DNA of 64,000 nucleotides from Eledone cirrhosa (lineage: Eukaryota), in assembly GCA_964016885.1 (NCBI GenBank), contig OZ024743.1, positions 181,350,001-181,414,000 of the forward strand, in the 5' to 3' direction. Both the position numbers and the translations under genes were made by a program. This document shows positions 12,816 through 64,000 of the stretch, piece after piece (within the stretch, counting starts at the first letter, position 1; the number at the start of each line of letters is the position of its first letter). The notes below the pieces were generated by a model that saw nothing but the letters and a program-made list of their open reading frames with translations, did not search any database and was not told where the DNA came from.

Positions 12816-13575
12816 TAGGCATTTACGTTTAAGATTACTACATTTCAAATTGTAACTTAATTATATTTCGTAAATATATTTTCAGAAAGGCACAGCTTTT
12901 AACTTTGATTTATATTTAATGTTCTGTCACATATTTTGCACTTCCGGTATCTGATGACAGCTATTTTCATCAGCCTTTCACCATATCATACTCTATATCG
13001 TCTGGGGATTTTAGGCATCTGCTTATTTACTTCGGCCTCATACTTTACATTAGTTTTCGTTTAGCTTTTATTCTTCCTTTTCTTTTCTTGTCATTTACTT
13101 ATAACTTATTTATCATGTATATATATATATATAGGTTTGGTGGAACTTGGGGGGGGGGGGGGTAGGGGCATCGTCCCCTCAATAATGATATTTCTTTCAC
13201 CAAACTACCAAAACACACATCTATTTGTATATGCACTAAAATTTATAAATTTATGTTCATGTTATGTAGAGATAGGTGGGAGAGATAGATATAGATATAG
13301 AGAGGGGGGAGGGTTTGGTGGTAATTGATATAAATTTCTATTTATTTGCCACCAGGGCATCAAAGATTGGGACAAATACAAAGGGGGGAGTTTACATACA
13401 TTTAAAAAGACGTGTAAAAAACATATAACAAATTAAATTTAACAATCGATGTCCTCAATAGGGAGGGGCGTTGACATGGGTCGCACACACCCCCCGAAAA
13501 AATGTGCAACGATCCTCTTCAGGAGCACAAAGATCGAGGTGCTTCCTTCCTCTTCTCATTCTTCTCCTCTCTCAC

Positions 13576-16500
13576 CTACAGGCTGATATAGAGAGAAGGC
13601 CCATTCACTCGGGCCATTCTCGCTACTTTAACCCACCTTTCATAAAACTTGCTGGGGTAGAGCACCTCTCTCTCCATTCTGATCCTTCTTCTAAAGTGGT
13701 ACTTGAAAAAAAAGACCAGTTGTTGGCCGGAGAGAAAGGTGTCTGACCTCAGCCCTTTCAACCTTGTCCACCATACAACTTCTTTCGCCATAGCTATCAC
13801 ACAGAGGAAAACCGCCTCTCCTTCGTTTTTGAAAGGGGGAGGCGGTTTGATCGTAACAATGTTCTCGGTGGTCAACCGGATTGGTCCCACCCGCGACAGT
13901 AGTCGTTCCACATAGCCCCACAGGTCAGCAACGCTCGGGCACTGTACGAATGCGTGTGCGACGGTTTCCTCGTCACGCACGCATCTCGGACAGATCTTCT
14001 TCGAGGGGTACCTACCCGGGCGCCCGTGTCTGTAGAGCTTGTCCCGAACGGGTAGAGCTCCTCGGTAACATTGCCAAGCCAGGGACTTTTGGAAGTTGTC
14101 CATCGGTCCCGGGCCAAACGTCCTACCGAACAGACTGGCCAGCTGGTCTTCCTCCATGCCCAGAGCCTCTCCGAGAGCGTCGTCGCACTTACTGCGCACC
14201 AACCCTCTATAGAATGTTGAGGTTGAGTCTCCACTGATTGCCGGATCCGCTTGCCAGAGGGCCGTGAGCGCCTGGGCACATTCAATGTGCCAGTCGCCCA
14301 CTTTTCTCGGTCTTTGCTTGACCCAGGATTGCAGCTCGGTGAGTGAGAGGAGTCTCGGAAAGGCTCGCCTCACAAACAAGGCCCACACCGGCTGACCGGT
14401 GAGGAATACCTGGAGGTGCCGTAGCCTTAATGCGTGTCTACGCATCGTCAGCCACGGCATCCCCAGCCCTCCGTTCGAAGGGTGTTGACAGCAGATGGAT
14501 CTTCTCACCAAAGGACCCCGCTTCTTCCAAAGAAATCGGAAGAGCGCGCGCTCCATTTTGGCGAGTGTTTTCTCTGGGCAAGGCACGACGGTCAAGCGAT
14601 AGTAGATGACGGACGCTATATAAGCGTTCGCCACCCACGCTCGACGTTTCAGGGATAGTTTACACTCGGCCCACTTCTGGGTCAGTGCAAACACCTTGCG
14701 CGTTACCTCGTCCCAGTTTTTCTCCACCTGGAGGTCCGGTCCGAACCAGACCCTGAGCAGCTTCACAGGTCCCTCCGTCCAGCGTCCGACGATGCCGTCG
14801 GAGAGAATCGTTTTGCCCCTCCACGTCCCGAGTTGCAAACCGACGGACTTGTCCCGGTTCAGCTAGGCTCCTGTGAACCTTTCATATTCCTCCAGTAAGG
14901 TGCCGGTCTGCCCAATTTCCGAGGCGCACGACACCATTACTGTCACGTCATCGGCGTAGGCCGACACCGTTTTCCGCAATTCAGGTTCCAAGGGGATGCC
15001 CTGCAACAGCTCCAGCTTCCGCAGTAGTGGCTCGAGAGCCAGCACATACAGGAGGGAGGAGAGAGGGCATCCCTGTCGGATGGATCGCGTGATTTGGAAC
15101 GGCTCCGAGAGCCTGGAGCAGGTGTTGCTGCTGTGCATTGCAGCAATCCAGACCCTGAAAACGGGTCCGAAGCCTGCCGCCGCGAGTACCGCATCCAGGT
15201 ACCGATGGTCAACCCTATTGAACGCCTTAGATTGATCCAACTTGATCAGGGCCCCACCAAGGCCGGGTTCGTTCCCTACCCTCTCTACGATGTATCGCAT
15301 GAGGTGGAGGTTGTCGTGTATGGACCTGGACGGGATTGCGCATGTCTGCGCTTCTCCCACCAGGTTCCGGACGACAAGCGCCAACATCTTCGCTAACACC
15401 TTGGCCAAAATCTTTAACCCTGTGTTTAGCAGAGTTATGGGGCTGAAGTTATCTATGTCATCCCCTTGTTCTCGTCCTTCCTCACCAGCGTGACTACGCC
15501 CTTGGTCACAGAACTGAGAATTCTCCCGTTCTGTTGCCAGTTGCAGTAGACCGCCTCGAGGAGACCGGAGAACAAGCCCGGGATCGCTACATAAAGTTCG
15601 TATGGTAGACCATCGAGACCCGGAGATTTGCATTTGCCGCATTGGCTCAGCGCTTCCCCTATTTTAGCGGCTGAAATCGGCCTCTCGCAGGACTTCTCCT
15701 CCCCGTCCGAGAGCCGCGCCAGACCGTCGAGGTATGGACCGAAATCCATGGCCCCACCCGGCCCGCCGCCCCTCCCGAACAGTCGTGCAAAGCGCCGTTG
15801 AAAGACCGCGCTCATCCGCTCAGGTTCAAGGATCACGCGTCCATCCTGGTCCTTCAAAGACCGAATCGTGGACTTGTTTCCACTTTTTGCCTCTGTCACT
15901 CGGGCCCAGCTAACAGCTTTGGCTCCCTCGTTACCCAGAGCACGTATTTTACTCCTGACAACGCAGCCCTCGTGCTTCGCATCAAAGAACTGGTCTAGGG
16001 CCGTTCTTGACGCCAGCACGCCGGCCACGTTGCCACTCCTAATCGCCTCTTCTATTCTATTTGTTAATTCCCTTTCAGTTCTATTGTTATCTGATGCTAA
16101 TTCTCGACTAAAACCTATCGATTCTATTCTAATTTCTCTCTTGAGAGAGCCCCACCACCTGCTGTTGACAATTGCCCCCGTCAAACGCTGCTTAACTAGT
16201 GTGCTAATCCGCTTACTGTAACCTTTGTTTGTCGGTAAAGACAAGTTTAGCTTCCAGTAACCGGGTCCCTATCTATGAGTTCTATCAAGGTTGACCACTC
16301 CAGTCACCAACTTGTCATTCCAACAGTCAAAAATGAACATTCGTGGACAGCTTAATATGTCCCTATCCTTATTTCTAACTAGGAACCTATCTAGGTACGA
16401 CCTAGATGTTCCGCTGCGATTACTCCACGTCCACCGTGGCACAGTCGGAAAATCTAGTCGATATCTATCGGCCAGATCAAATCGGCCGATTAATCGTTTG

Positions 16501-16992
16501 AGGCTGTTACACCCCCTCTATCGGGACATGCCCCTACATAGTCCCAACGTGCATCCAGGATACCATTCCAGTCCCCCACTAAAAGCAAGGAGCGAGACGT
16601 CCCAGGAAATTCTCCAGGCATCGGAAGAAGTCCGGTCGCGGTGTCCCAGATGGGGCATACGCTGCCACCAGCCTAAAAGCTCCACCTTAACCACTGCCGA
16701 CGTCTAAAACCACCAGTCGACCCTCCGGGTCCAGGTGTACCTTCTGTGTGGCAAGACCCAGGTATTTTCGCAGCAGAACGACAACCCCACCACCACCCCT
16801 CGGCTGACAGAGAGATGCGTAGATCTCAAAGTCGTCGAAGATGGGGGCCAGTTGGCGCTCGCTGTTGATCCTGGACTCGCAAATAACCATTACATCCACT
16901 CTGTGCGACCTGAGGTCATTTAAGAGTTTGCCCTGTTTCCAGGACATCCCCAGGCCGCGTGCATTCACACATCCAACTCTTATATTGGCCAT
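13576..16992 (-). pseudogene. Tx1 ORF2 (APE endonuclease, reverse transcriptase, C-terminal Cys/His motif), disrupted
   Basis: IRVGCVNARGL, ICES, SPGLDG, LDQSKAF, RQGCPLS, YADD and CPRC..HAFVQC, split over several frames by frameshifts and stops. Confidence 0.95.
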
Positions 16993-17034
16993 GTTGGTGC
17001 TGAAGAGTTAAAAAGGAAGAGGAAAGGAAATTAC

Positions 17035-18846
17035 TTACCTCTTCGTCTCCTGGGGACCAGGCTGCACAATTTCCATGGGGGTGCTGGAAGGGTTGTTTGG
17101 TGGGGTGGTGGTTTGTGGTGGGGTGAGGACATCAGTGAGTGGTGGGATTAGGGTGTTTGGTGGGGTGTGGGTGTCTTCTGGTGTGGGGGTGGGGAAACAT
17201 CTCAATAGGACGCTGTTAAGTGGTTTGGTGCAGGTGGTCCCCACATGCATTGGATGGTTCTTTTTCAAAGTTACATAGGTTTCTGTTGGGACCCTAATCA
17301 TCATTAGGTGCGGTTTGTTCGCTGAGTAGGTGAAAGTGATCTCTTCGGTTTCCACCGAAGGGTTATTTTCTATCGCTTTCATCAAAGTTTTATTGTTCTT
17401 GTTAATGTATGTATAGTGTTTTGTTGTGTTGTGTTTGTTTTTGTTTGTTGTTCTTGTGCGTGTTTGCGTTTTGTAGTATGTGTTATGTTTTGGGGAGGGG
17501 TGGGGTTTTTTGTTTGTGATGTTTGTTCTGTTTGTGCTGGTGGTTGTGTGTTTGTAGCATTTTTGTTAATGTGGTGCCTTTTTTTTCCTTTTCACCTGTT
17601 GAAAGGGTTCTCCCTCGTCGTCACTGGGTGACGTTGATACGGAGTCCTCTTCCGTGTTGTTGGGGAGGGGTATATTTTGGGGTTTTGTTGTGGTTGCTTT
17701 TGTATATGTTTTAGGTGGGGAGGGGTTGGGTGGAACAGTGTTTTGTGTTGTTATTTTTCCGTATTGTTGTGGTTGTTGTTGTTGTGGTGGTGGTGGTGGT
17801 CGTCGTCGTTGTGTTGTTGCGTTCGGTGTTGGCAGAAGAGCCTTTTTTTTTACTCGTTAATTGAGGACAGGCAGCCTTCAGGTGACCCCTGCTTAAGCAG
17901 TGGTAACATGACGGCCGCCTTCCCTCCACTGAAATGTTTATATAAGTTAGCCCGTCCAGAGGCACGCGTTGTGGGATATTCACTATTCGTTCTGGGCTCA
18001 TTTACACCAGAACTTCTACGCTGGTCCCGCCAAATACACCTCTAGAGGACTTTCCTATTGAAATTATCTTGTCTTCATCAAAGTCAATGATTCCACATAG
18101 TATCCACCAAATATTTACATTTGGTGTGATTCTCATTATTTTTATTCTTTGTGTCCTTTTCCCCCTGTATGTGGGGAAAAAGGTGAAGCGGGGGGACACA
18201 ATGGGTGATACCGAGTACTTTTGTGCTGTTGACTGGTTGTTCATTAGCACCGAAATGCTACCAAACAGTTTTCCTTTTTGTATGAAGGTTATGTCCTTCA
18301 TTGCATCTTTTAGAACCAGCTCAATTTCATTTTGTGATAATTGAGCTGGTTTTCTTGTTTCGGTCGATATTCTCCTGAAAACCACAGTTTTCAGGACAGC
18401 CTCTCTACGTAATTCCTGTGGAGAATTGATGCTAAAAGCACCGTTTTCGCCAAAAGTCACGAATTGTTTTGCGTCTTGTAATAGTTGTTTAGCATTTTGT
18501 ATGTCTATAGGCATGTATAGTTCGTTTTTTTTTACAGTCTGTGCGAATGTTGTTTTGGTGTTGTTGTCTTTTTTGTTGCTGCTCTTGTTGTTACTGTTGG
18601 TAATATTGTTCATGTTTTCCTTGGTGTTGCTATTGTTGCAGTTGTTGGTTGTGGTGTTATTGTCATCGTTCTTGTTGTTGGTGCTGGTATTATTTACCGG
18701 GATTGGTTTCGTGGTTTCAATATTTTCAACGTTTTTCGATAATGCGAGGGGGAAGGCTGCAAGCTTTGTACTCTTACCTTCCCTCTACCACTTTTCTTAG
18801 TGGGCGTGGCACTCACGACAGTGTGCGAGGTGGAAATGGCATCCAT
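17035..18846 (-). pseudogene. Tx1 ORF1 (gag-like, CCHC zinc knuckle), disrupted
   Basis: CYHCLSRGHLKAAC = CX2CX4HX4C; N/T-rich low-complexity tracts; in-frame stop at 18002-18004; probable ATG at 18846 with a frameshift before 18613. Confidence 0.85.
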
Positions 18847-19574
18847 TGCTGACTACCAAATCTACACAGTTTTGAGATGAAAATGAAAATTTCGCAAAAG
18901 AAAGGGGCGAAAATTAGTTAACTCAACGTCTGCAGGCCCAGGCAAGGGGTTAACTAAACAATGCTATTAAATTAAGCAATGAACTCACAGTTTTTTTACA
19001 ATAATTCGTAAAAATCCGGAGCGAAGTAATTCACGTCTATATCAAGTGGTAATTGATATAGAGAGGAATAGAATTTGATTTTAGCAGATACAGATAGGGG
19101 GATTAAAAAAGAGTTTTATGTGATAGACATAGAGAGGTAGGGAGTTTAGGGGCACTCATGGGTCCCAAATAATAGGAGGCGGTGGCAATAATGGGGCGCG
19201 AGGGGGGGGGGGGCTTGGGAAATCAGTAATTGTATAGTGTACGTTTGTAAGTATGGGATATCTTGTAATGTTCTTATTTTGTCATATATAGTGTTTTTTT
19301 TTTATGTAAAATAAAATTATTAATAGATTCTCCACCTGCTGTATCAATAAGAATCACTTACAATAAAATTTCGCCGGAGATAGATTAGCAAAATTTAATA
19401 AGTGGGTGACTTGACCTTTTACAACTAACCCATTTCAAACTTTCTTTCTGCTAACACTCTCTCATCGTGTAGTGGAAGAGGATGGAGCCGGAAGATGTGT
19501 ATCTGGGGTGCTGAGGTAACAGAGGGAAGATTGTGAAGCCAAGGAAAACACGGGGATCCAAGGTACTTTACATA

Positions 19575-22382: not shown

Positions 22383-23407
22383 TACATCGACGACTGTATC
22401 GGAGCCACGACCCTCACCCGAGAACAGCTCGACTCCTTTCTCTCCTTCTTCTGCTCCTTCCACCCCTCCCTCCACTTCACCACCTCTATCTCCACCACCC
22501 ACGTCCACTTCTTAGACATCTCCATCGCCTTCGACCCCTCCCACCACTCCCTCGTCACCTCCGCCTTCTTCAAACCCACCGACTCCCACTCCTACCTCGA
22601 CTTCACTTCTTCCCACCCCACACACACTAAACACTCTATTCTCTACTCCCAACTCCTCAGGATCCGCCGCCTCTGTAGCCGAGATGTTGACTTTGAGTCC
22701 TAGGCCCTTTCCCTAGTCAGCCATTTCATCCGCAGAGGTTACCCCCCCCCCCTCTCTCGTCCACACCGCTCTCACCCGCACCCGTGCTGTCCACAGCTCC
22801 ACCACCCTCACCCCACGCCACCGCACACAATACCCACCGTCTCCCCTTCCCCATCACCTACCACCCCTCCATCATACCCCTCCACCGCACCATCCTCCGC
22901 CTCTTCCGACGCCTGCAGTCCGACCCCTCCACCTCCCACATCTTCCCAGCCCCACCACTCCCCTCCTTCAAACGCGCACGCAATCTCCGCACCCTCCTCG
23001 TCCACAGCTCCCTACTCCCCCCCGGTTCCTATCCCTGTTCTAGGCCCCGCTGCAACACCTGTCCCCACATCACCAACACCACCACCTTCCAGGGTCCCAA
23101 CGGCCACTCTCTCTCTGTCCGGCATGCCTTCCGCCGCACCTCCTCCAACCTAGTCTACGTCGGACAGACTGGACGTCGCCTGGCGGACAGATTTACTGAG
23201 CACCTCCGGGATATTCGTCTCGGTGGTAGTTCCCCCATCGCCCGCCACTTTGGTGCCTCTGGACATTCCGCGCACCACCTCACAGTCTGTGGCCTACTCC
23301 AATGCCACGGAACACCCGCCAATCTCCTAAGAGTCGAACAACGAACCATCTTCACCCTACAGACCCACACTCCCCCCGGCCTGAACTCCCCACCCTTATT
23401 CCTTTAG
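22383..23407 (+). pseudogene. PLE reverse transcriptase C-terminus and GIY-YIG endonuclease
   Basis: YIDDCIG, VHFLDISI, FKPTDSHSYLDFTSSHP, YSQLLRIRRLCS; CSRPRCNTC linker; NLVYVGQTGRRLADRFTEH...PPGLN. One stop, a frameshift at the poly-C (~22742) and an apparent deletion between the GIY and YIG motifs. Confidence 0.92.
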
Positions 23408-26316: not shown

Positions 26317-26817
<501 letters not shown>

Positions 26818-26971
26818 TCACAAATGCAATTTAAAAGTTAGTCGATTTTCCCCAATAGGGGGAGACAGTTTATATGGGTAACACATACCCCCGAAAAAAT
26901 GTGAAGCCCTCATCTCCAGGAGTACGAAGAGTTTGTACTCCTTTCCTCTCCTCCTCCTCCCTTTCCTCAAC

Positions 26972-29900
26972 CTACAGGCTGATATAGAGAGAAGGCCCAT
27001 TCACTCGGGCCATTCTCGCCACATTCACCCACCTTTCATAAAACTTGCTGGGGTACAGCACCTCTCTCTCCATCCTGATTCTTCTTCCAAAGTGGTATTT
27101 GAAAAAAAGAATCAGTTGTTGGCCGGAGAGAAAGGTGTCTGACCTCAGCCCTTTCAACCTTGTCCACCATTCAACCTCTTTAGCTATCACACAAAGGAAA
27201 ACCGCCTCTCCTTCGTTTTTGAAAGAGGGTAGCGGTTTGATCATGACAATGGACTCGGTGGTCAACCGGATTGGTCCCACCCGCTACAATAGTCGTTCTA
27301 CATAGCCCCACAGGTCAGTGACGCCCGGGCAGTGTGTGAATGCGTGCGCGACAGTTTCTTCGTTACGCACGCACCTCGGACAGATCTTTTTTGAAGGGTC
27401 CCTGCCCGGGCGCCCGTGCCTGTAGAGCTTGTCTCGAACTGGTAGAGCTCCTCGGTAGCACTGCCAAGCCAGGGACTTTTGGAAATTGTCCATCGTTCCC
27501 GGGCAGATGGTCCTACCGAACAGACTGGCCAGTTCATCTTCCTCTACGCCTAGAGTTTCACCGAGCGCATCGTCGCACTTGCTGCGGATCAACCCTCTTT
27601 AGAATGACGAAGTGGAGTCTCCACTGATCGCCGGGTCCGTCTGCCAGAGGGCTTTGAGCGCCTGAGCACATTCGATGTGCCAGTCGCCCATTTTCCTCTT
27701 TGCTTGACCGACCCAGGACTGCAGCTCGGTCAGCGAGACGAGTCGTGGGAAGGCTCGCCTCACGAACGGAGCCCACACCGGTTGTCCGGTGAGGAATACG
27801 TAGAGATGCCGCAGCCTGAGCGCGTGTTTGCGCATCGTCAACCACGGCATCTCCAGCCCTCCGTTAGAAGGGTGTTGGCAGCAGATGGATCTTCTCACCA
27901 ATGGAGCCCACCTCTTCCAAAGGAATTGGAAGAGCGCGCGCTCCATTTTGGCAAGCGTTTTGGCTGGACAAGGCACGACGGTCAAGCGGTAGTAGATGGC
28001 GGACGCTATAAAAGTGTTCGCCACCTCCGCTCGACCTTTCAAGGATAGTTTGCACTCGGCCCACTTCTGGATGAGTGCAAACACCTGGGCCGTCACTTCG
28101 TTCCAGTTCTTCTCCACCTGGAGGTCCGGACCAAACCAGACCCCGAGCAGCTTTACCGGTCCTTCCGTCCAGCGTCCGACGACGCCATCGGAAGGCATCG
28201 GTTTGCCTCTCCACGATCCGAGTTGCAAACCGATGGACTTGTCCCGGTTCAGCTTCGCTCCTGTGAAACTTTCGTATTGCTTCAGTAAGGTGCCGACTTC
28301 CTCGATTTGCGAGGCGTTCGACACCATTACTGTCATGTCGTCGGCGTAGGCCGACGCCGCTTTCCGCAGTCCCGGTTCCACAGGGATGCCCTGCAATAGC
28401 TCCAACTTCCGCAGTAGTGGCTCGAGAGTCAGTACGTACAGAAGGGAGAAGAGAGGGCATCCCTGTCGAATGGATCGCGTAATATGGAACGGCTCCGAGA
28501 GGTAGCCGTTCACCTTGACCCTTGAGCAGATGTTGCTGTTGTGCATTGCAGCAATCCAGCCCCTGAACACGGGTCCGAAGCCTGCCGCCTCGAGCACCGC
28601 ATCCAGGTAACGATAGTCAACACTATCGAAAGCCTTAGACTGATCCAAGTTGATCAGGGCCCCACCGAAGCCGGGTTTACACCCTACCCTCTCTATGATG
28701 TATCGCATGAGGTGGAGGTTGTCGTGTATGGACCTGGTCGGGATTGCGCATGTCTGCGCTTCTCCCACCAGGTTCTCGACGACAAGCGGCAGCCTCTTTG
28801 CCAACACCTTGGCCAAAATCTGTAACTCTGTGTTTAGCAGAGTTATGGGCCGGAAGTTGCCTATGTCATCCCCCTTATTCTCGTCCTTCCTGATTAGTGT
28901 GACTACGCTCCCGGTTACAGAACTGGGAATTCTCCCGTTCTGTTGCCAGTTGCAGTAGACCGCTTCCAGGAGACCGGAGAATAAGTCCGGCATTTCTACA
29001 TAAAATTCGTAGGGTAGACCGTCGAGACCTGGAGATTTGCGTTTGCCGCATTGGCTCAGCGCGTCCCCTATCTCAGCGGCTGAAATCGGCTTTTCGCAGA
29101 ACTTTGCCTCGCTGTCCGAGAGTCGCGGTAGGCCGTCGAGGTATGGACCGAAATCCATAGCCCCTCCCGGCGCGCCGCCCCGCCCGAACAGTCGAGAAAA
29201 GTGCCGCTGAAAGGCCGCACACATCTGCTTCGGCTCACGTATAACGTGTCCGTTTTGGTCCTTCAAAACCGAATCGTGGACTTGTTTCCACTTTTTTCCT
29301 GCGTCACTCGGGCCCGGCTAACAGGTTTGGCTCCCTCGTTTCCCAGAACACGTATTTTGCTTCTGACAACGCAGCCCTCGTGCTTTGCGTCGAAGAACTG
29401 GTCCAAGGCCGATCTCGTTGCTAACACGCTGGCTACGTTGCCACTTCTAATTGCCTCTTCTACTTTATCTACCAGTTCTTTCTCGGTTCTATTTCTATCT
29501 AACGCTAATTCTTTACTAAAAACTAACGAGTCTAATCTAACTTCCCTCTTGAGAGAGTACCACCATCTGTTGTTGACAATGGCCCCTGTCAAGTGCTGTT
29601 TAATTAAAGTGCTAATCCCTCTACTGTAGGCTTTGCATGTCGGTAACGACAAGTTCAGCTTCCAGTTGCCGGGTCCTTGTCTATGGGCTCTATCAAGGTT
29701 GACCATGCAGGTCACTAGTTTGTGATCTGAATAGGCAACTATGAACATTTGTGGACAGCTTAACATGTCCCTATCCTTATTTCTAACTAGAACCCTATCT
29801 AGGTACTATCTAGATATTCCGCTAAGATTAGTCCACGTCTACAGTGGCACAATCGGAAAATCTAGTCGATATCTATCGGCTAGGTCAAATCGGCCGATTA

Positions 29901-30386
29901 ACTGTTTGAGGATGTTACACCCCCCTTTATCGGGACATGCTCCCACATAGTCCCAACGTGCATCTAGGATTCCATTCCAGTCCCCCACTAAAAGCAAGGA
30001 GCGGGAAAAGTCTCTAGACGTTTGAAGAAGTCTGGCCGCGGTGTCCCGGATGGGGCATATGCGGCCACCAGTCTGAAGGGTCCACCTTCACTACCGTCAA
30101 CGTCTAGGACCACCAGTCGACCCTCCGGGTCCAGATCTACCGTCTGTGTTACGAGGCCCAGGTGTTTCCGCAGCAAAACGGCAACCCCACCCCCCGGCTG
30201 ACAGAGAGATGCGTAGATCTCAAAGTCATCGAAGATGGAGGTCAGCTGTCGCTCGCTGTGGATCCTGGACTCGCAAATGGCTACTACATCCATACTGTGC
30301 GACCTGAGGTCGTTTAAGAATTTGCCCTGTTTCTAGGGCATCCCCAGGCCGCGTACATTCACACACCCAACTCTTATATTGGCCAT
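26972..30386 (-). pseudogene. Tx1 ORF2 (APE + RT), disrupted
   Basis: 555-aa open stretch with FRPITLLN, LDQSKAFD, RQGCP and YADD; APE motifs YAP and SDHK; early TGG>TAG stop and several frameshifts. Confidence 0.95.
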
Positions 30387-30423
30387 GTTGGTCCTGAAAA
30401 GTTAAAAGAGGAGAAGAAAACAC

Positions 30424-31277
30424 TCACCTCTTCGACTCCTGGGGATCAGGCCGCACGGTTTCCATGGGGTTGTTAGGGGAGTTGTCTGGGTGAGTGGTGG
30501 TTTCCGGCGGGGTGGGGACGGAGATGTTTGGTGGGGTGGTGGTGTCTGGGGTGAGGGCAGGGAAACTTTTTTAAAAGGGCGCGGTTAATGGGTTGAACAC
30601 AAGGATTACCCACGTCCTTAGGAAAGTTTTCCTTTAAAGACTTATAGGTGTCCGTGGTTACGCTAATCATCTTTAAATTAGGTTTGTCTACACAGGTCGA
30701 AAAAGTTTTCCCTTCGGTTTTCACCGAAGGGTCGTTGGAGATGACCTCCATTAAAGTTTTATTTTTACTGTTTATGTATGTGTAATGTTCTTGTTGTGTT
30801 GCGGTGGTTTTTGTCTGTTGTTCTTGTGGGAGCTTTCGTTTTGTTGTAGGTGTTTGTGTTTGGAGTGATGTCGTGGTTTTGTTTTTGGGACGGGGGTTTT
30901 TTGTTTGTAATGTTTGTGTTGTTTGTGTTGGTAGTTGTATGTTTGTAGTGATGTTTGTTGTTTTTTTGTTCTTGTGGTGTCTTTTCTTCTTTCTTTTCGA
31001 ACGGAGAGGCTCTCCCTCATCATCACTTGGTGATGATGTGGGGGCCTCGTCCGTTGTGGTGTCTGTGTTATTTGGAAGGGGTATGTTTTGAAGAGCTGTT
31101 GTGTTTGTGGGTGTTTTTGCAGTGGTTTTAGGTGGAGTGGGGTTGGGTGGGACTGTGCTTGCAGGTTGGTTTGTTGTTCTTGTTTTGGTTGTGTTTGCGT
31201 GTTGTTGTTGTTGTTGTGGTGGTGCTGGTGGTGGTGGTGTTGGTGTTTTGGGTGTTGGCAGTAGTGCCTCTTTTTTT
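30424..31277 (-). pseudogene. Tx1 ORF1 C-terminal part
   Basis: T/N/Q-rich tract, then ISNDPSVKTE...PINRALLKKFP and METVRPDPQESKR*, homologous to the end of copy 1 ORF1. Confidence 0.8.
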
Positions 31278-31290
31278 TAGATAGATAGAT

Positions 31291-42217: not shown

Positions 42218-43123
42218 AAAGAATAAAGCCTGATATAAATCTCTCACCCAGAGAAATCGGAAGATCCTATTCAATGTTCAAACAAGAAAAAAAAAATTGA
42301 CCAATTTACAGAAAAAGTTGTGCATGGATACTTGAGGCGTAAAACACAGACCATAGAGGGGATAAACCACTCAAAAAGCCTGGCATGGAGTTCCGACAAG
42401 TTTATGACATCACACCTTGAGGGATATCTCTATGCAATACAGGAACAAGAACTCCCTACCAAATATCTGCTGCACAAAAGAGGAGGGCCAGCAGCTGACA
42501 ATAAATGTAGGCTATGTAAAACAAAGATCGAGGATGTAAGCCACATTGTTGCCAGCTGCGAAAGAATGTCATCTCGCTTCTACCTCCCCATGAGACACGA
42601 TAGGATAGCTAGAACTATCTGGAACGCACTTCGGAAAACAAAATTAACAACAAACGAGGAACAATATATTGAGACAGATGGCACTAAGGAATACTGGTGG
42701 AACCTGAAAATAAAAACTGCCACCAAATTAAAGCACAACCGGCCTGATATTGTTGTTTGAGACCACACATTGAAAACGTGTTCTGTTGTGGAGATCAGCT
42801 GCCCACTTGATGTAAACGTTGTCAGAAAAATACAGGAGAAGAAGGACATCTACGGACCATTGATGAGGAGTTTACAAATCCAGTATCCAAGATACATCTT
42901 TAGCTTCATACCCATCACTATTGGAGCTACGGGTTATATACCAACCCGCTTGGACCAAAGTATGACTGAACTTGGATTTGCGGACAAAAAGCGCAGCTCC
43001 CTAATTCATAGTCTACAAAACATTCTTGCGATTCAAGGGATGACAATTTCTTTTCTTTTACAACCTTGCCACCAGGAAGGTGGCCGGTCAAAAAAATATA
43101 CTCGAAATTAAGAGAAAGAGATA
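42218..43123 (+). mobile_element. R4/Dong-clade retrotransposon 3' part (zinc knuckle + RLE)
   Basis: HGYL, EGYLYAIQEQ, CRLCKTKIEDVSHIVASC, RHD, NRPDIVV, VEISCPLD; flanked by (TACA)n. Confidence 0.9.
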
Positions 43124-43209
43124 ACATACATACATACATACATACATACATACATACATACATACATACATACATACATACATACATACATACATACATA
43201 CATACATAC

Positions 43210-45745
43210 TACCCGAAAAGGTAGATGAAAGAAAAGTGCTTAATAAAAGATTCAGACGAAACCAAACACCAGTCTATAGAGATATGAAGGACAAAATAAT
43301 AAGTGTCACTGAGGCCCCATCCCAGAAAGACAGATTCCTTTTAGAGAAAAAAATGGGGTGAAAAGAAGAATTTCAACCAAGATGCAGTGTGGCTAAAAGA
43401 AATTCAAAAGAACTATTGCTCCTACACTACAACAAAAACATACGAAATAAGTGAGGGTACCCTTGAGACTGTGATAGGAAAACTCCAAGATAAGAAAACA
43501 CCAGGAAGAGACATGATTATCGGCTACTGGTGCAAAAAACTGATATTCTATCGGAGGTATCTTACCGACCTCTACCAACAAGTTCTTAAGGGAGATACAC
43601 TTATACCAGAATGGTTGACATTAGCACAAACATTACTGGTCCCAAAGAACAAACATACCCACTTGGCAAAACTACCGATCCATTGCATGCCAGAACCTGA
43701 TCTATACAGCCTGCCTGAACCTATTCCTCCAAGATCACTGTGAAAATACTAACATCATCAGAGATGAACAAGCAGCTGGAAAGAAAGGGGTTTGGGGATG
43801 TGCTGAACAACTCCTAATCAACAAAACTGCGATGTTGGAGGTGCGACAACTTAGGAGGAATATGGCTACAGTCTGGCTGGACTCGATTCTGTTCCCCACT
43901 CTTGCATGATAGTGGCCCTCCGACTTGCTAATGTCCCAGACATTATTATCAGAGCGATAGAGAAGCTGTCTTCTTCTGGGCTACTATCCTAAAGTTAAAG
44001 ACAGAGAAGAAGGACTCTATTTTCATTGATAAAATAAAATATCGCAGGGGTATATTTCAGGGAGACAGTCTCTCTGTGATATTATTTATCCTGTCATTAA
44101 ATCCCTTGTCCTTACTGCTCAAGAAATGTGAAGGATACAACATTGGCTCACAGGAGGACAGAAATACGAACCTAACCCATAATTTCTTTGTGGACGATCT
44201 GAAACTCTATGCCAAGAACATGGATGTGATGAAGAAAAATTTTGACCTGGTTACAACATTCTCAAAGGATATAGGAATGGAGTTTGGCCAAGATAAATGT
44301 TCATATATGATTGTAAAGCGGGGAAAAACAACAACCCAATCTAGCAACATTGGCATCAATGGTCTAACTGTTTCACCGATATCTGATGAGGACTGCTACA
44401 GATACCTGGGGATAGATGAGAACATATCCTATAATGGTATCTGTAATAAGGAACGCGTAACCAGGGAATACTACACCCGATTAAGAAAGATATGGTTATC
44501 GGAACTCTCTGCGCAAAACAAAACAGTGGCTCACAGTGTGTTTGCTGTGCCTGTCCTAACACCAACGTTTGGAATACTCAATTGGACGATAGACGAAATC
44601 CGAGCAGTTGATGTTGGAATTCGAAAAATACTGAACAACACCGGAAACTTCCACATCAACAGTGACATAGACCGCCTTTACTTGAAACGTAAGCAGGGAG
44701 GCAGAGGCCTAACATCAATCCAGACAGCATTTCAATGTCGCATCATATCTCTCCGACAACATCTACGAACCTCGAAGCGTAGGTGCCCGTCTCTCGAGCA
44801 AGTCTATCTGCATGAAACAGATAAGATCATGAGAGTTGGGCAGGAACTCCTCGAAAGATATTCCGTGTGATAATCAAAACCTCACACCTAGGGAAGTCGC
44901 TCAGCAGTATCGCAGTGAATCCATGGATGAAAAACTGCATGCTTATCAGCAAAAAATCATGCATGGATATGTTGCTAGGAAGCTCCAGAGTGAGAGTAAT
45001 ATAGATAAGGAAAGTAGTCTATCTTGGACCAACAACCGCTATATTGGCTCCCACTTTGAAGGATACGCTTTTGCAGTCCAAGAACAGGAAATAATAACGA
45101 AATACCTGATTCACAAAATAGATAGGGATGCAGGCAAAACACCTAGATGTGATAACAAGTGAAGACTCTGCAGAATTAACATCGAAGATGTGACCCATGT
45201 CATAAGCAGCTGTCCAAAGATGTCATCGCGGTACTATCTCCATATGAGGCATGATGTAGTGGCCAAAACACTGTACAATGCATTCCGTAGAAAAGATAGC
45301 TCCGATAATAAACACATTAAAAGCTACAGCAATGTGGAAGACATACATATACATAATATGAAAGAGTACTGGTGGGATGTTCCAGTAAAAACCCCAATAA
45401 AATGCAGGCATAACAGACCAGATATTATGATATGGGACAGGGAAAAGAAGGCATGCACAGTAGTGGAGGTTAGCTACCCAGCAGATGCCAATATAATATC
45501 AAAGATTAGCGAAAAGGAGAATATGTATGCAGAACTGATGAGAAACCTGCAGATACTCCACCCTGATTACACCTTCAGATTTATGCCTGTGATTATTGGG
45601 GCACTGGGATATGTTAGTAACTGCGTCAATACAAATCTCGAGAAGCTGGGCTTCACAGGAACAGAAAGAACACAACTAGTTAGGAAATTACAAGTACAAT
45701 CCATTAATGGAACAGTAAAAATATGTAAAACATTCCAAAAGTGGG
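43210..45745 (+). pseudogene. R4/Dong-clade RT-CCHC-RLE ORF, 5'-truncated and disrupted
   Basis: PGRD, RGIFQGDSLS, FFVDDLKLY, FGQDKC, YRYLG, RLYLKRKQGGRGL, MHGY, RHD, NRPDI; begins directly after (TACA)n. Confidence 0.93.
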
Positions 45746-46199
45746 GAAAGGCCTTGCACTCGACCAATCCCACTCTCTGAACATCGAAAACACTACCCGA
45801 AAAGGAGAACGGGTCAACATCATCGGTTTCTTCCGAAGCCGCAGGGCTTTTTGTTTTCCAGAGTTTCTCTTTTCTAGAAAGTTGTTGTGACAACATCTGG
45901 GGGCCTTTAACTCCCAGTTTAAAAAAAAAGAAAGAAAAAGTACTATTTGGATGGCCGTTGACCCTGTTGAGTTCCTCCGCCTTTTGCCGGGTCTTGTATT
46001 TCATCCCGCATGGTCTCCAAATATCACCCTCCTCACCAAGCAGCTTACATATATACATATGATGGCTGCAACTCGATTTCGAGTGATGCCATTGCTTGAT
46101 ACTTAAGCATGAGCATCACGGATATGGCTTTTTAGTCCTGCTAGGGACTTGCCTATGGCCAGCAATACCATGCGTCACAAACAAATGTCAAATATGAAT

Positions 46200-60932: not shown

Positions 60933-62148
60933 CTTTCTTTCATTATTGTTTCTGAGCTATATGCCGAGTGTCTTCCTGACACCTAGGACAAATAAATTCA
61001 CAGTGTGCATTGGTAAGCCAGTTAATACAGCACATTGATTATAATTGAAAAAAACAAACAGTATACATATATAGAAATGTGCATATGTATATGTAAATAA
61101 ATACAAGGAGGGATATGAATCTTACAGAGATAGTGCTCTTCTCAATACGTGTGCAGTACCAGTCAAAACAATTTTTTGCACCTCGTGCAGAGAGGGTAAA
61201 CCAAGAATCATTCGCAAATATTGTTCTGTTCCTTTCTTGATCATTCCCAGTCCTCCCACAATCACTGGTATTGTAACGGCCTTGAGGTGCCAAATTTTCT
61301 CAATTTCAATAACCAGATCTTTATATTTTCGAAGCTTGTCAAATTCTTTTGCCGCGATATTGTGATCACATGGGATTCTCATATCTATCAACAAACAGAC
61401 CTTATTATATTGATCTTTTACAATGATGTCAGGTCTATTTGCTTTTATGGTCCTGTCAGTATGTACTTTTTCTCCTTCAGTTACAGCCTCGGGGTGATGA
61501 TTGTACCACTTGTCTTCAACTTTGATTTTGTAATGCCGACATATTACCCAGTGGAGATATTGGCCAACTCTGTCATGTCTATATTTGTATTCTACTGGTG
61601 CTAAAATTTACATCCAGAGACTAAGTGATCCACTGTTTCAACCTCAGCATTGCAGAATCGGCACGTTTCTCATCACATTGGCCTGGTAATTACGAGTCAA
61701 TAAGATTTGATCTTGAGCAGCTAAGATGAAGCCTTCACTCTCCGCCTTTAGCCTTGAACTACGTAGCTACTGATGGGCGTGCTTTTGGTCAACATCAGCT
61801 TGTTTGCTACGGGCCAAATATTTGCCATGCAGAGGTTTCTGCTCCCAATTTGATGCTAATTGTCCTTGCCCTTTTGCTTTTGCCAGTGATTTTATGTGCC
61901 TAACAGCATCAGTTGCAACAGTTTCTTTAGTCTGTCCAGCCTGGGTATCAAGCATGAGATCAGTAGCATATTTTTTGCTCTCCTTCAAGATAGAATGAAG
62001 CTTCTTACTTCTCTCGTGCTTTTCAACAAGTTTCAGCATACAGTCGTTAGTTGTTTCAAGGTATTTGGCCAGTCCAATGATGGTGGTCTTGTAAGCAAGT
62101 TCAAATTGGATCAGGCCAAGGCCTCTTTGAGTTATAGGGAGGTAAAGA
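60933..62148 (-). mobile_element. Dong/R4-clade element 3' part between (TAA)n tracts
   Basis: LYLP..RGLGL, QKPLHG, ESEGFILAAQDQ, ANRPDI, KYKDL.IEI, IPVIVGGLG; (ATT)n at 60911-60932 and 62148-62166. Confidence 0.9.
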
Positions 62149-62166
62149 TTATTATTATTATTATTA

Positions 62167-63117
62167 CAGTTGCATTTATCTTGCCTTATGTTCATACGAG
62201 TTATCACCAAGTCACAACCTCAAGAGACAAGGTCCGTCATGTTCAAGAAAGAACACACATACACACACACATGCATCTTTAGGTGTTTAGACTTGTGATG
62301 TACTTATATTGACAGAATCTTCCTTAGTACATGGGCAGTTCCCATTAGTACTATATTTTGTATTTCTCCTATACGCGGGTTTCCTGGGATTTGCGATAAG
62401 TAATCATTATCCCCCTTAGTTATCATTCCTAGAGCGCCTACAACCACTGGTATTGTTTTAGTTGTCAATTTCCACATTTTTCCAATTTCTATCTCCAGGT
62501 CCTTATACTTGCTCAATTTTTCAAATGTTTTTATAGATACATTCTTGTCTATTGGAACGGGTATATCAATTAGAAGGCATACCCTCTTTTTAAAGTGCTT
62601 CAGTAATATATCAGGTCTATTTGCATCTATTTTTCGGTCTGTTTGGATGCTAAAGTTCCACAAGATTGAGATGTGATCTTTTTCAAGTACAGGAGGTGGT
62701 TGATTCTCCCACCAATTCTTTTGATGGGACAGGTCAAAATGGTTACACATTATCCAATGTATGTATTGTGCAGCTCTGTCGTGCCTGTTTAGGTATTCGG
62801 TTGGAGCTATAGGACTGCACATTGAAATTATATGATCAATGGTCTCTGGTTGTTTTTTACATACACGGCATAATGGGTTGCATCCATTTTTGATTATGTT
62901 GGCTTGGTAATTTTTTGTTGGTAGACACTGATCTTGTGCTGATATAATTAGTCCTTCAGTCTCCGATTTCAGTCCAGAGGATGCCAACCACTGATGGGTT
63001 AAAGTTTTGTCAACATCAGGATTGTTAGTTCTTTCTGGGTATTTTCCAAACAGAGGCTTTTCTTGCCATTTCTTAGCCAGTTTCTGTAGCAGTTCTTTCT
63101 TTGCAGTTACTTTTACA

Positions 63118-63120
<3 letters not shown>
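62167..63120 (-). mobile_element. Second Dong/R4-clade element 3' part, open ORF to 62304
   Basis: ETEGLIISAQDQ, CRVC..ETIDHIISMC, RHD, NRPDI, CLLIDI, KYKDLEIE; (ATT)n on both sides. Confidence 0.92.
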
Positions 63121-63166
<46 letters not shown>

Positions 63167-64000
63167 GGCGACCTACGTAGGAAATCGTATCATCGTGAGC
63201 TTCGCAAAGGTTTGTTGTTTTCGTTTGTTTAAAATTGCCATTTATCGAAAATTTTTGTTGTTAGCTATTTATAAAGTCACAAAATTTGCTTTCTAAAAGG
63301 GACACTCAAAAAGATTGGGGCCTTGAGCCCAAAATTTAAACTTTTATAATTATCAAACAAAAAATTTATTAGAAAAAATCATGGACGACTCACAGCTACA
63401 CCAAGTAGCTGAGAGCCTTCCACACAAACTAACACCTCACACCAACACCACCATTATAAATATTACTACGATTGCCAACACTAAAAATATAAGCAGTAGC
63501 AATAATTTAAATTTGTCTCATGCAGACATTCATTTCCCACCATTACCAATGACTGCAGGCATTGAAGCCGCCACCCCCACCCCCACCACAGCGACAACAG
63601 AAACAAAAGAAAAAAATAAATTATCTCGTGACATCGAAATGGATTCACCCAGAATGGACTCTTCCACACAGAACACCACTGACGCCACCACCACCACAAC
63701 TGAAACTAAAAATAACAATAACAAAAGTAACAATAACAACAACAACAACAACAATGAGAATAACAACATCGTGTCTTTTGCCAAAGCAGCTAAAACATGC
63801 AAAACAATCCAGGTAACTCAGGAGGAATTAGATGAAGCCAAGAAATTGGTAAAGAAAGATGGGTACAGGGTCAGCCTCACCCCCTCCCCCTAATAAAATG
63901 GAGCATCGGCGCCTATGCACCGTGTCTTATCGGACGATTAACATAAAATCGCGCCGAGAGGAACGGGCAACCGAGTCCCAAATCCAAAAAGCTTTGGGAC
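63167..64000 (+). mobile_element. 5' end (5'UTR + ORF1 start at 63381) of a third, divergent Tx1-type LINE; continues beyond the window
   Basis: T/N-rich N-terminus, then VSFAKAAK..ELDEAKKLV.. and, after a frameshift at ~63890, HRRLCTVSYRTINIKSRREERATESQIQKAL; parallels TTFAQTVK..LLQDAKQFV..AVLKTVVFRRISTETRKPAQLSQNEIELVL of copy 1. Confidence 0.7.

Follow-up and report, generated by a model that had tools for sequence, protein, structure and literature searches.

The locus described here raises the question of whether a short GT..AG stretch, lying across the ORF1 stop codon of a two-ORF LINE, is an intron whose removal fuses ORF1 to ORF2, or whether these splice-like signals have another role. 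The element was found in a 64,000-nt stretch of genomic DNA (hereafter the window) from the 3.0-Gb genome of a host that we take to be octopus-like. From two diverged copies in this window, the first-pass annotation had proposed that both the splice signals and the phase of the join are under selection.

The ORF1/ORF2 junction and the element that carries it

For the copy under study (copy B), the junction at 30435-30384 on the minus strand reads ...GAG TCG AAG AG/GTGAGT...TTTTCAG/G ACC AAC ATG, where slashes mark the proposed splice positions. The GT..AG stretch occupies 30427-30394 (minus strand, 34 nt) and spans the ORF1 stop codon, TGA, at 30426-30424. In the second copy, copy A, the corresponding stretch lies at 17038-17000 (minus strand, 39 nt) and the ORF1 stop is TAA; the two copies share 82% identity across 4.6 kb. 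Removal of either stretch places ORF1 and ORF2 in frame, and reading of the sequence thus confirmed the annotated 34-nt GT..AG across the ORF1 stop and its in-frame join. The features of the two copies are as follows, with all coordinates given in the window.

30424..31279, minus strand: 3' part of ORF1 of a group B copy, ending ...ESKR-TGA, in a 5'-truncated LINE
30422..30430, minus strand: 5' splice donor GAG/GTGAGT overlapping the ORF1 stop; GTRRGT is found here in 11 of 11 groups and is used in a contig from a sister copy
30387..30427, minus strand: spacer of 41 nt between donor and ATG, predicted to form arm 1 of a long-range stem (duplex and fold predictions)
30394..30396, minus strand: CAG, the proposed acceptor; six of 11 groups lack it, and the sole spliced contig passes over it
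26972..30386, minus strand: ORF2 (endonuclease, reverse transcriptase, zf-RVT) with its own ATG in CCAACATGG context; broken in copy B, with intact relatives
26927..26971, minus strand: purine-rich beginning of the 3' UTR, which is complementary to the spacer and predicted to form arm 2 (duplex -41.8 kcal/mol; paired in the global fold)
26737..26742, minus strand: AATAAA near the 3' end of the element, followed by a TATC-type microsatellite
16993..17041, minus strand: donor GAG/GTAAGT and 46-nt spacer of copy A (group A)
13535..13575, minus strand: 3' UTR arm of copy A, complementary to its spacer (duplex -38.6 kcal/mol)

The in-frame outcome in copies A and B is a single inherited fact rather than two, because length changes internal to an intron cannot alter phase and the same 7 nt precede the ATG in both copies; the chance of an in-frame join is ~1 in 3. 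The base after CAG was A in 23 and G in 2 of the loci showing the junction (25 of 30), such that the G of copy B is rare in its family. Copy B itself is dead, being 5'-truncated at ~31279 and carrying a TAG at ORF2 codon 18 as well as frameshifts. Copy A (13333-19045, minus strand) is full length with a 15-bp target-site duplication. Three further A copies begin in the same flanking sequence as copy A, and the target of group A may perhaps be a repeat other than (TATC)n.

For classification of the element, domain content and copy structure were examined. The ORF2 (~1140 aa) of intact relatives matched PF03372, PF00078, and PF13966 (copy B, PF00078), and its best match among solved structures (PDB) was human L1 ORF2p (E 3e-52). 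An N-terminal apurinic-type endonuclease, a reverse transcriptase, and a C-terminal zinc domain place the element among the APE-type L1-like non-LTR retrotransposons. A separate upstream ORF1 of ~640-700 aa contains a CCHC-like motif, and 5'-truncated copies and a target-site duplication were present, with no LTRs. By eye and uncounted, groups B-E end in TATC repeats and groups H-J in ATT repeats. The element resembles microsatellite-targeting Tx1 LINEs and is labelled here a putative member of the Tx1 clade. L1-Tx1 families have been recorded in Octopus vulgaris, and the accessible text of that report makes no mention of splicing (PMC13282606).

Other copies and fragments were noted nearby and elsewhere. 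Just past copy B, at 26350-26480, the 3' end of the element and its flank recur in a short inverted copy, across a (TC)n(TA)n repeat. A third relative, ~70% identical and belonging to family H, starts at the end of the window in an (ATT)n repeat (63327-64000, plus strand, and L045), and its spacer is without an AG. Further retroelement fragments were seen at 42239-45780 (with a reverse transcriptase domain at 43932-44870), 61122-63119, and 22697-23407, the last of which resembles a GIY-YIG/Penelope-type end by eye, with no Pfam match. In the genome, copies of the young families I and K are arrayed head to tail in sets of 6-10 with ~5.8-5.9 kb spacing (G000:C1:423365119-423418122 and C1:4225294-4255709), and family H was likewise found in tandem.

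Donor, acceptor and phase across 11 sister groups

Sister copies obtained by genome searches were sorted into 11 groups (A-K), with A-J being 66-94% identical in the first 600 nt of ORF2. All 11 groups carry a donor 25-46 nt upstream of the ORF2 ATG (GTAAGT in eight, GTGAGT in two, and GTAGGT in one), which is the sole consensus donor, or one of two to three, in the ~6 kb of the element. In eight groups the stop codon lies inside the donor, as TAA, TGA, or, in K, TAG. In G, I, and J it lies outside, the phase of the donor differs, and GTRRGT is kept even where it does not serve as the stop codon. A variant with a mostly 37-nt spacer gave 20 matches in a search whose gap left out the 34-nt form.

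Five groups (A, B, C, I, and J) have an AG ahead of the ORF2 ATG, and the other six of the 11 (D, E, F, G, H, and K) do not. Splicing at that AG would bring ORF1 and ORF2 into one frame in A-C and at five of eight J loci, and into different frames in I and at two of the J loci; one J locus has no AG. The proposed selection on acceptor and fusion phase was therefore not borne out. Each kind of relative that the first-pass annotation had named as contrary to splicing was encountered, namely a TAG stop (family K, 338 matches with ≤2 mismatches), no AG before the ATG (D-H and K), and a predicted out-of-frame product (family I, 338 matches, and the two J loci). Families H (1894 exact matches), I, and K each include copies with intact ORF2; being intact and numerous, they indicate that elements lacking a usable acceptor have multiplied successfully. 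A tree built from 21 copies placed K and G, neither of which has an AG, closest to A (support 86/84 and 100/100). As regards a spliceosomal intron, a functional 5' splice site is thus found, a contig (below) joining the donor to a host exon at a canonical AG, whereas a conserved 3' splice site and phase are not, AG being absent from 6 of 11 groups and the phase mixed.

Two other readings of the junction were considered at this stage. Stop readthrough had been argued to be unable to explain the two copies, and with spacers of 25-46 nt this holds for the family; it was rejected for most groups, though at four of the eight J loci (L136, L137, L138, and L150) ORF1 and ORF2 share one frame split by a single TAG. 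Trans-splicing at the CAG was dropped because the AG is not conserved.

Use of the donor in RNA and searches for spliced copies

A contig of run X4 (depth 115) departs from ORF1 exactly at the donor, and the sequence beyond has a single place in the genome, where it continues in a single-copy PF03567 sulfotransferase-family exon directly behind the pyrimidine tract ...CTCACAG. The source of this contig is a group B copy at G000:C3:34.98 Mb, located on the same strand 22.5 kb upstream of the exon and carrying the predicted donor variant; this copy has 21 of the 21 listed contig substitutions, the next best locus having 16. Run X4 (88 Mb of contigs; library not on record) was treated as RNA because this contig bridges a GT and an AG separated by 22.5 kb, and the evidence from RNA amounts to a single contig, from one locus, in one run. 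The donor at the end of ORF1 is functional in one copy. With its retention in 11 of 11 groups and its use in the spliced contig, the annotated splice donor is both conserved and real. At this locus (G000:C3:34980576-35004768; L081, L032), the join ends ORF1 at once and is out of frame with the host exon.

In the source copy of the spliced contig, the near CAG, 34 nt away, is intact, yet it was skipped. Contigs of X4 spanning the A reference spacer retain it (two contigs, depth 104 of 112). The 34-39-nt join was absent from the joints listed for three runs and from the 15 of 29 joints examined in X4, where contigs show presence only and drop rare forms, such that a rare short-intron form could be missed.

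Because ORF2 and the 3' end would both be retained in a fused RNA, such an RNA would be expected to be copied back into the genome. No fused-junction genomic copy was found at ≤2 mismatches, compared with 475 exact unspliced matches (C or G after CAG) and 25 B-type loci. The single match to a short fused-junction motif (L031) was attributed to chance and is not a LINE. Removal of the 34-39-nt stretch to give an ORF1-ORF2 fusion would account for the GT..AG pairs with in-frame joins in A, B, C, and five of the eight J loci. It is at odds with the groups that have no AG, among them both nearest relatives of A, with the out-of-frame joins of I and two J loci, with the want of fused copies, and with contigs that retain the spacer or skip the AG. 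We consider the fusion largely refuted and very improbable, and the idea should be dropped.

Searches for other spliced forms gave similar results. For sequence other than the spacer behind the donor, 31 matches were obtained and 30 inspected, which represented small indels, truncation, deletion, or new subfamilies only. Spliced-form searches of family H returned seven and six matches, none ORF2-less, against 1894 unspliced, and that of family I returned 0 against 338. For groups A-D, no ORF2-less copies were found with a pattern not covering the A-type 3' UTR, and a pattern covering it gave six unrelated matches versus 14 in the reversed control. The patterns used span many, not all, possible acceptors.

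These results bear on a second possible use of the donor, namely its joining to an acceptor situated at the ORF2 stop or beyond it. All of ORF2 would thereby be removed, and the message would contain ORF1 alone, comparable to the subgenomic RNA of Copia elements, with the stem tuning its amount. The donor works and sits exactly at the end of ORF1, where phase is irrelevant, ORF2 ends in a pyrimidine tract and TAG/G in 10 of 11 groups, and a precedent exists in Ty1/Copia, as described in the accessible part of PMC5580714. The largest young family, H, however, ends ORF2 with TAA and no AG, no ORF2-less genomic copy was found in A-D, H, or I by searches that catch several but not all joins, none was among the 15 of 29 X4 joints examined, and the sole spliced contig bypassed the element's own 3' end. 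An ORF1-only message is accordingly regarded as unlikely, though still worth bearing in mind.

Several full-length copies (L082, L083, L085, L087, L088, L094) possess a second donor, GCTG/GTAAGT, ~35 nt from their 5' end, and group A has a weaker GTGAGT at ~60 nt from the 5' end. In human L1, the donor of SpORF2 lies in the 5' UTR. Splicing from the 5'-end donor, which full-length copies of groups B-E possess, to the CAG before ORF2 could in principle yield an ORF2-only message like SpORF2, known from human L1 (PMC2896524, accessible text). The AG is missing in 6 of 11 groups, however, and the three matches with foreign sequence before the ORF2 start included no join of 5' donor to CAG, so that we give this route hardly any credence.

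Complementarity around ORF2 and a proposed role for the donor

In every one of the 11 groups, donor and spacer show complementarity to the ~45 nt that directly follow the ORF2 stop. In a duplex scan of the copies having both parts (32 of 43), the start of the 3' UTR was the best of ~175 windows in 21, tied in one, and not the best in 10, five of which belong to group G. For copy B the duplex was -41.8 kcal/mol, compared with -33.0 for the best of 177 other windows, and for copy A it was -38.6, compared with -31.7 kcal/mol for the best other window; in group G it was weaker than other windows in all five copies. Pyrimidine and purine tracts pair readily. Composition-preserving shuffles gave z values of -2.7 to -5.1 in 10 of 10 groups, and 5 of 500 for K. 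A preference for the own partner was found by permutation (p = 0.0003 for 10 groups, 3/720 for six more distant groups, and 0.0007 for 11 groups with K included), these values being optimistic since the groups are related. Taken group by group, the own partner came out best in only 2 of 10 because the arms of close groups are interchangeable.

Matching changes were observed opposite the donor, where GTGAGT faces ACTCAC (C), GTAAGTG faces CACTTGC (E and H), and GTAGGT faces ACCTAC (K). Elsewhere in the arms, CCAGC faces GCTGG in I and TTAGC faces GCTAA in J, pairings by which the AG of I and J is accounted for as part of the stem. The register is fixed, with the ATG-side end of the spacer pairing with the first bases after the ORF2 stop, such that the ORF2 ATG is set beside the ORF2 stop. 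Global folds of 3.75 kb, run for nine groups, paired the arms in six (A, B as represented by copy B, C, H, J, and K), whereas no such stem was formed in E, G, and I; for copy A, 16 of 46 spacer nucleotides were paired to the 3' UTR arm. Good pairing of the donor hexamer itself is limited to ~4 of 11 groups (C, E, H, and K). Judged from comparison of the sequences, the arms around ORF2 are complementary and change together across groups. The source copy of the spliced contig has arm 2 (duplex -34.0), and the stem therefore does not fully block the donor.

The donor-facing part of arm 2 is overlapped by a short inverted repeat of the GGAGYAC...GTRCTCC type, located at +25 to +60 of the 3' UTR in groups A-G and K. 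This local repeat could compete with the long-range stem; local folds gave it in only some groups.

Taken together, we favour, at a probability of about one-half, a model in which the conserved donor ends ORF1 and the spacer is predicted to pair with the beginning of the 3' UTR and so enclose ORF2 in a loop, so that the element would possess a stem-gated U1 donor and likely no fusion intron. A regulatory role for donor and stem is likely by analogy with known systems. During transcription of ORF2 (3.4 kb), arm 2 would not yet be made, and U1 snRNP could occupy the free donor, where it would guard the RNA from early cleavage at cryptic poly(A) signals. In Arabidopsis, U1 at the donor of EVD prevents premature termination of the full-length RNA (PMC5580714, accessible text). 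Most cryptic A(A/T)TAAA signals of the present element lie upstream, in the A-rich ORF1, where their positions vary, and many ORF2s are free of them; this step of the model is therefore weakened. Once made, the 3' UTR would allow the stem to cover or crowd the donor, favouring unspliced full-length RNA as the template for new copies. By the title of a paper cited in PMC3369869, a structure holding the splice sites limits splicing of the pregenome in duck hepatitis B virus. Translation of ORF2 would start at its own ATG on the unspliced RNA, by reinitiation once ribosomes finishing ORF1 had opened the stem; termination-reinitiation has been proposed as the way ORF2 is made in L1 and SART1, according to the accessible text of PMC5972666. 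If transcription continued past the element into host DNA, the donor could leak and splice to a host exon.

The stem might instead serve mainly in translation or template choice, by holding the ORF2 AUG beside the ORF2 stop and 3' end, coupling translation of ORF2 and ORF1, or marking full-length RNA for ORF2p, with the donor being a separate U1 site or a by-product. The fixed register and the poor pairing of the donor in most groups are in keeping with this, as is the need for structure in SART1 ORF2 translation (PMC5972666, accessible text), but it leaves unexplained both the survival of the donor through changes of stop codon, phase, and spacer length (25-46 nt) and the matching changes facing the donor in C, E, H, and K. 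On balance we hold this account to be improbable.

For relatives in other organisms, a first metagenome scan gave no match; 59 metagenome loci were subsequently found, and the 17 reaching the ORF2 start were examined, comprising ~9 families with a defined ORF1 end. GTRAGT occurs within a few bases of the ORF1 stop at three loci, representing two families (L199/L201 and L211), with a rough chance of 0.014 each. In L199 (32% identity), the start of the 3' UTR was the spacer's best window of 403 and the global fold paired both; shuffles with the exact spacer gave 25 of 1000. A 70-nt-window duplex test on distant loci was not significant in five of five (L199, z ~-0.8), and the group H UTR paired with the L199 spacer equally well (-26.7 versus -25.3). 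Deep conservation of donor and stem is thus a lead suggested by sequence, not proof, with the L199 version being the weaker.

Extended to the LINE lineage, including the ~32%-identical relatives elsewhere, the stem-gated donor could be a co-transcriptional switch, a U1 site open during ORF2 and closed by a 3' UTR strand 3.4 kb away, with the same stem setting the ORF2 start beside the stop and marking full-length RNA for copying. We offer this broader claim only tentatively. Control of the ORF1:ORF2 balance and of RNA integrity in two-ORF LINEs is settled for few elements. Donor and stem are real enough to test: a conserved donor with a covarying stem around ORF2 would be a directly testable RNA-level control, and the young intact families H, I, and K are at hand. 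Since the donor splices into host exons, as seen in one case, the >3,000 copies counted can rewire host transcripts.

A literature search, with most subscription papers and Repbase entries outside its reach, found no report of a donor at the end of a LINE ORF1 together with a stem around ORF2. Among LINEs, the microsatellite-targeting Tx1 elements Kibi and Koshi are alike in having two ORFs, an ORF2 of ~1140 aa with endonuclease, reverse transcriptase, and zf-RVT, and (TATC)n or (ATT)n repeat ends, but neither the donor nor an ORF2-flanking stem is described in the accessible text of PMC4494074. Human L1 is likewise a two-ORF LINE with an inter-ORF spacer (63 nt, reinitiation; PMC5972666) and internal splice sites (PMC2896524); in contrast, SpORF2 drops ORF1, and the accessible parts of both papers describe neither an ORF1-stop donor nor a spacer-to-3' UTR stem. 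Beyond LINEs, EVD and other Ty1/Copia elements differ in being LTR elements, in having a proven spliced gag RNA, and in that no long-range stem is described in the accessible text of PMC5580714, but they share a conserved 5' splice site after the structural gene, at which U1 binding averts early termination. Duck hepatitis B virus differs as a virus in which the structure holds both splice sites, whereas the partner in the LINE is the 3' UTR and no conserved acceptor was found; the resemblance, by title of the work cited in PMC3369869, is that a structure holding splice sites keeps the template for reverse transcription unspliced.
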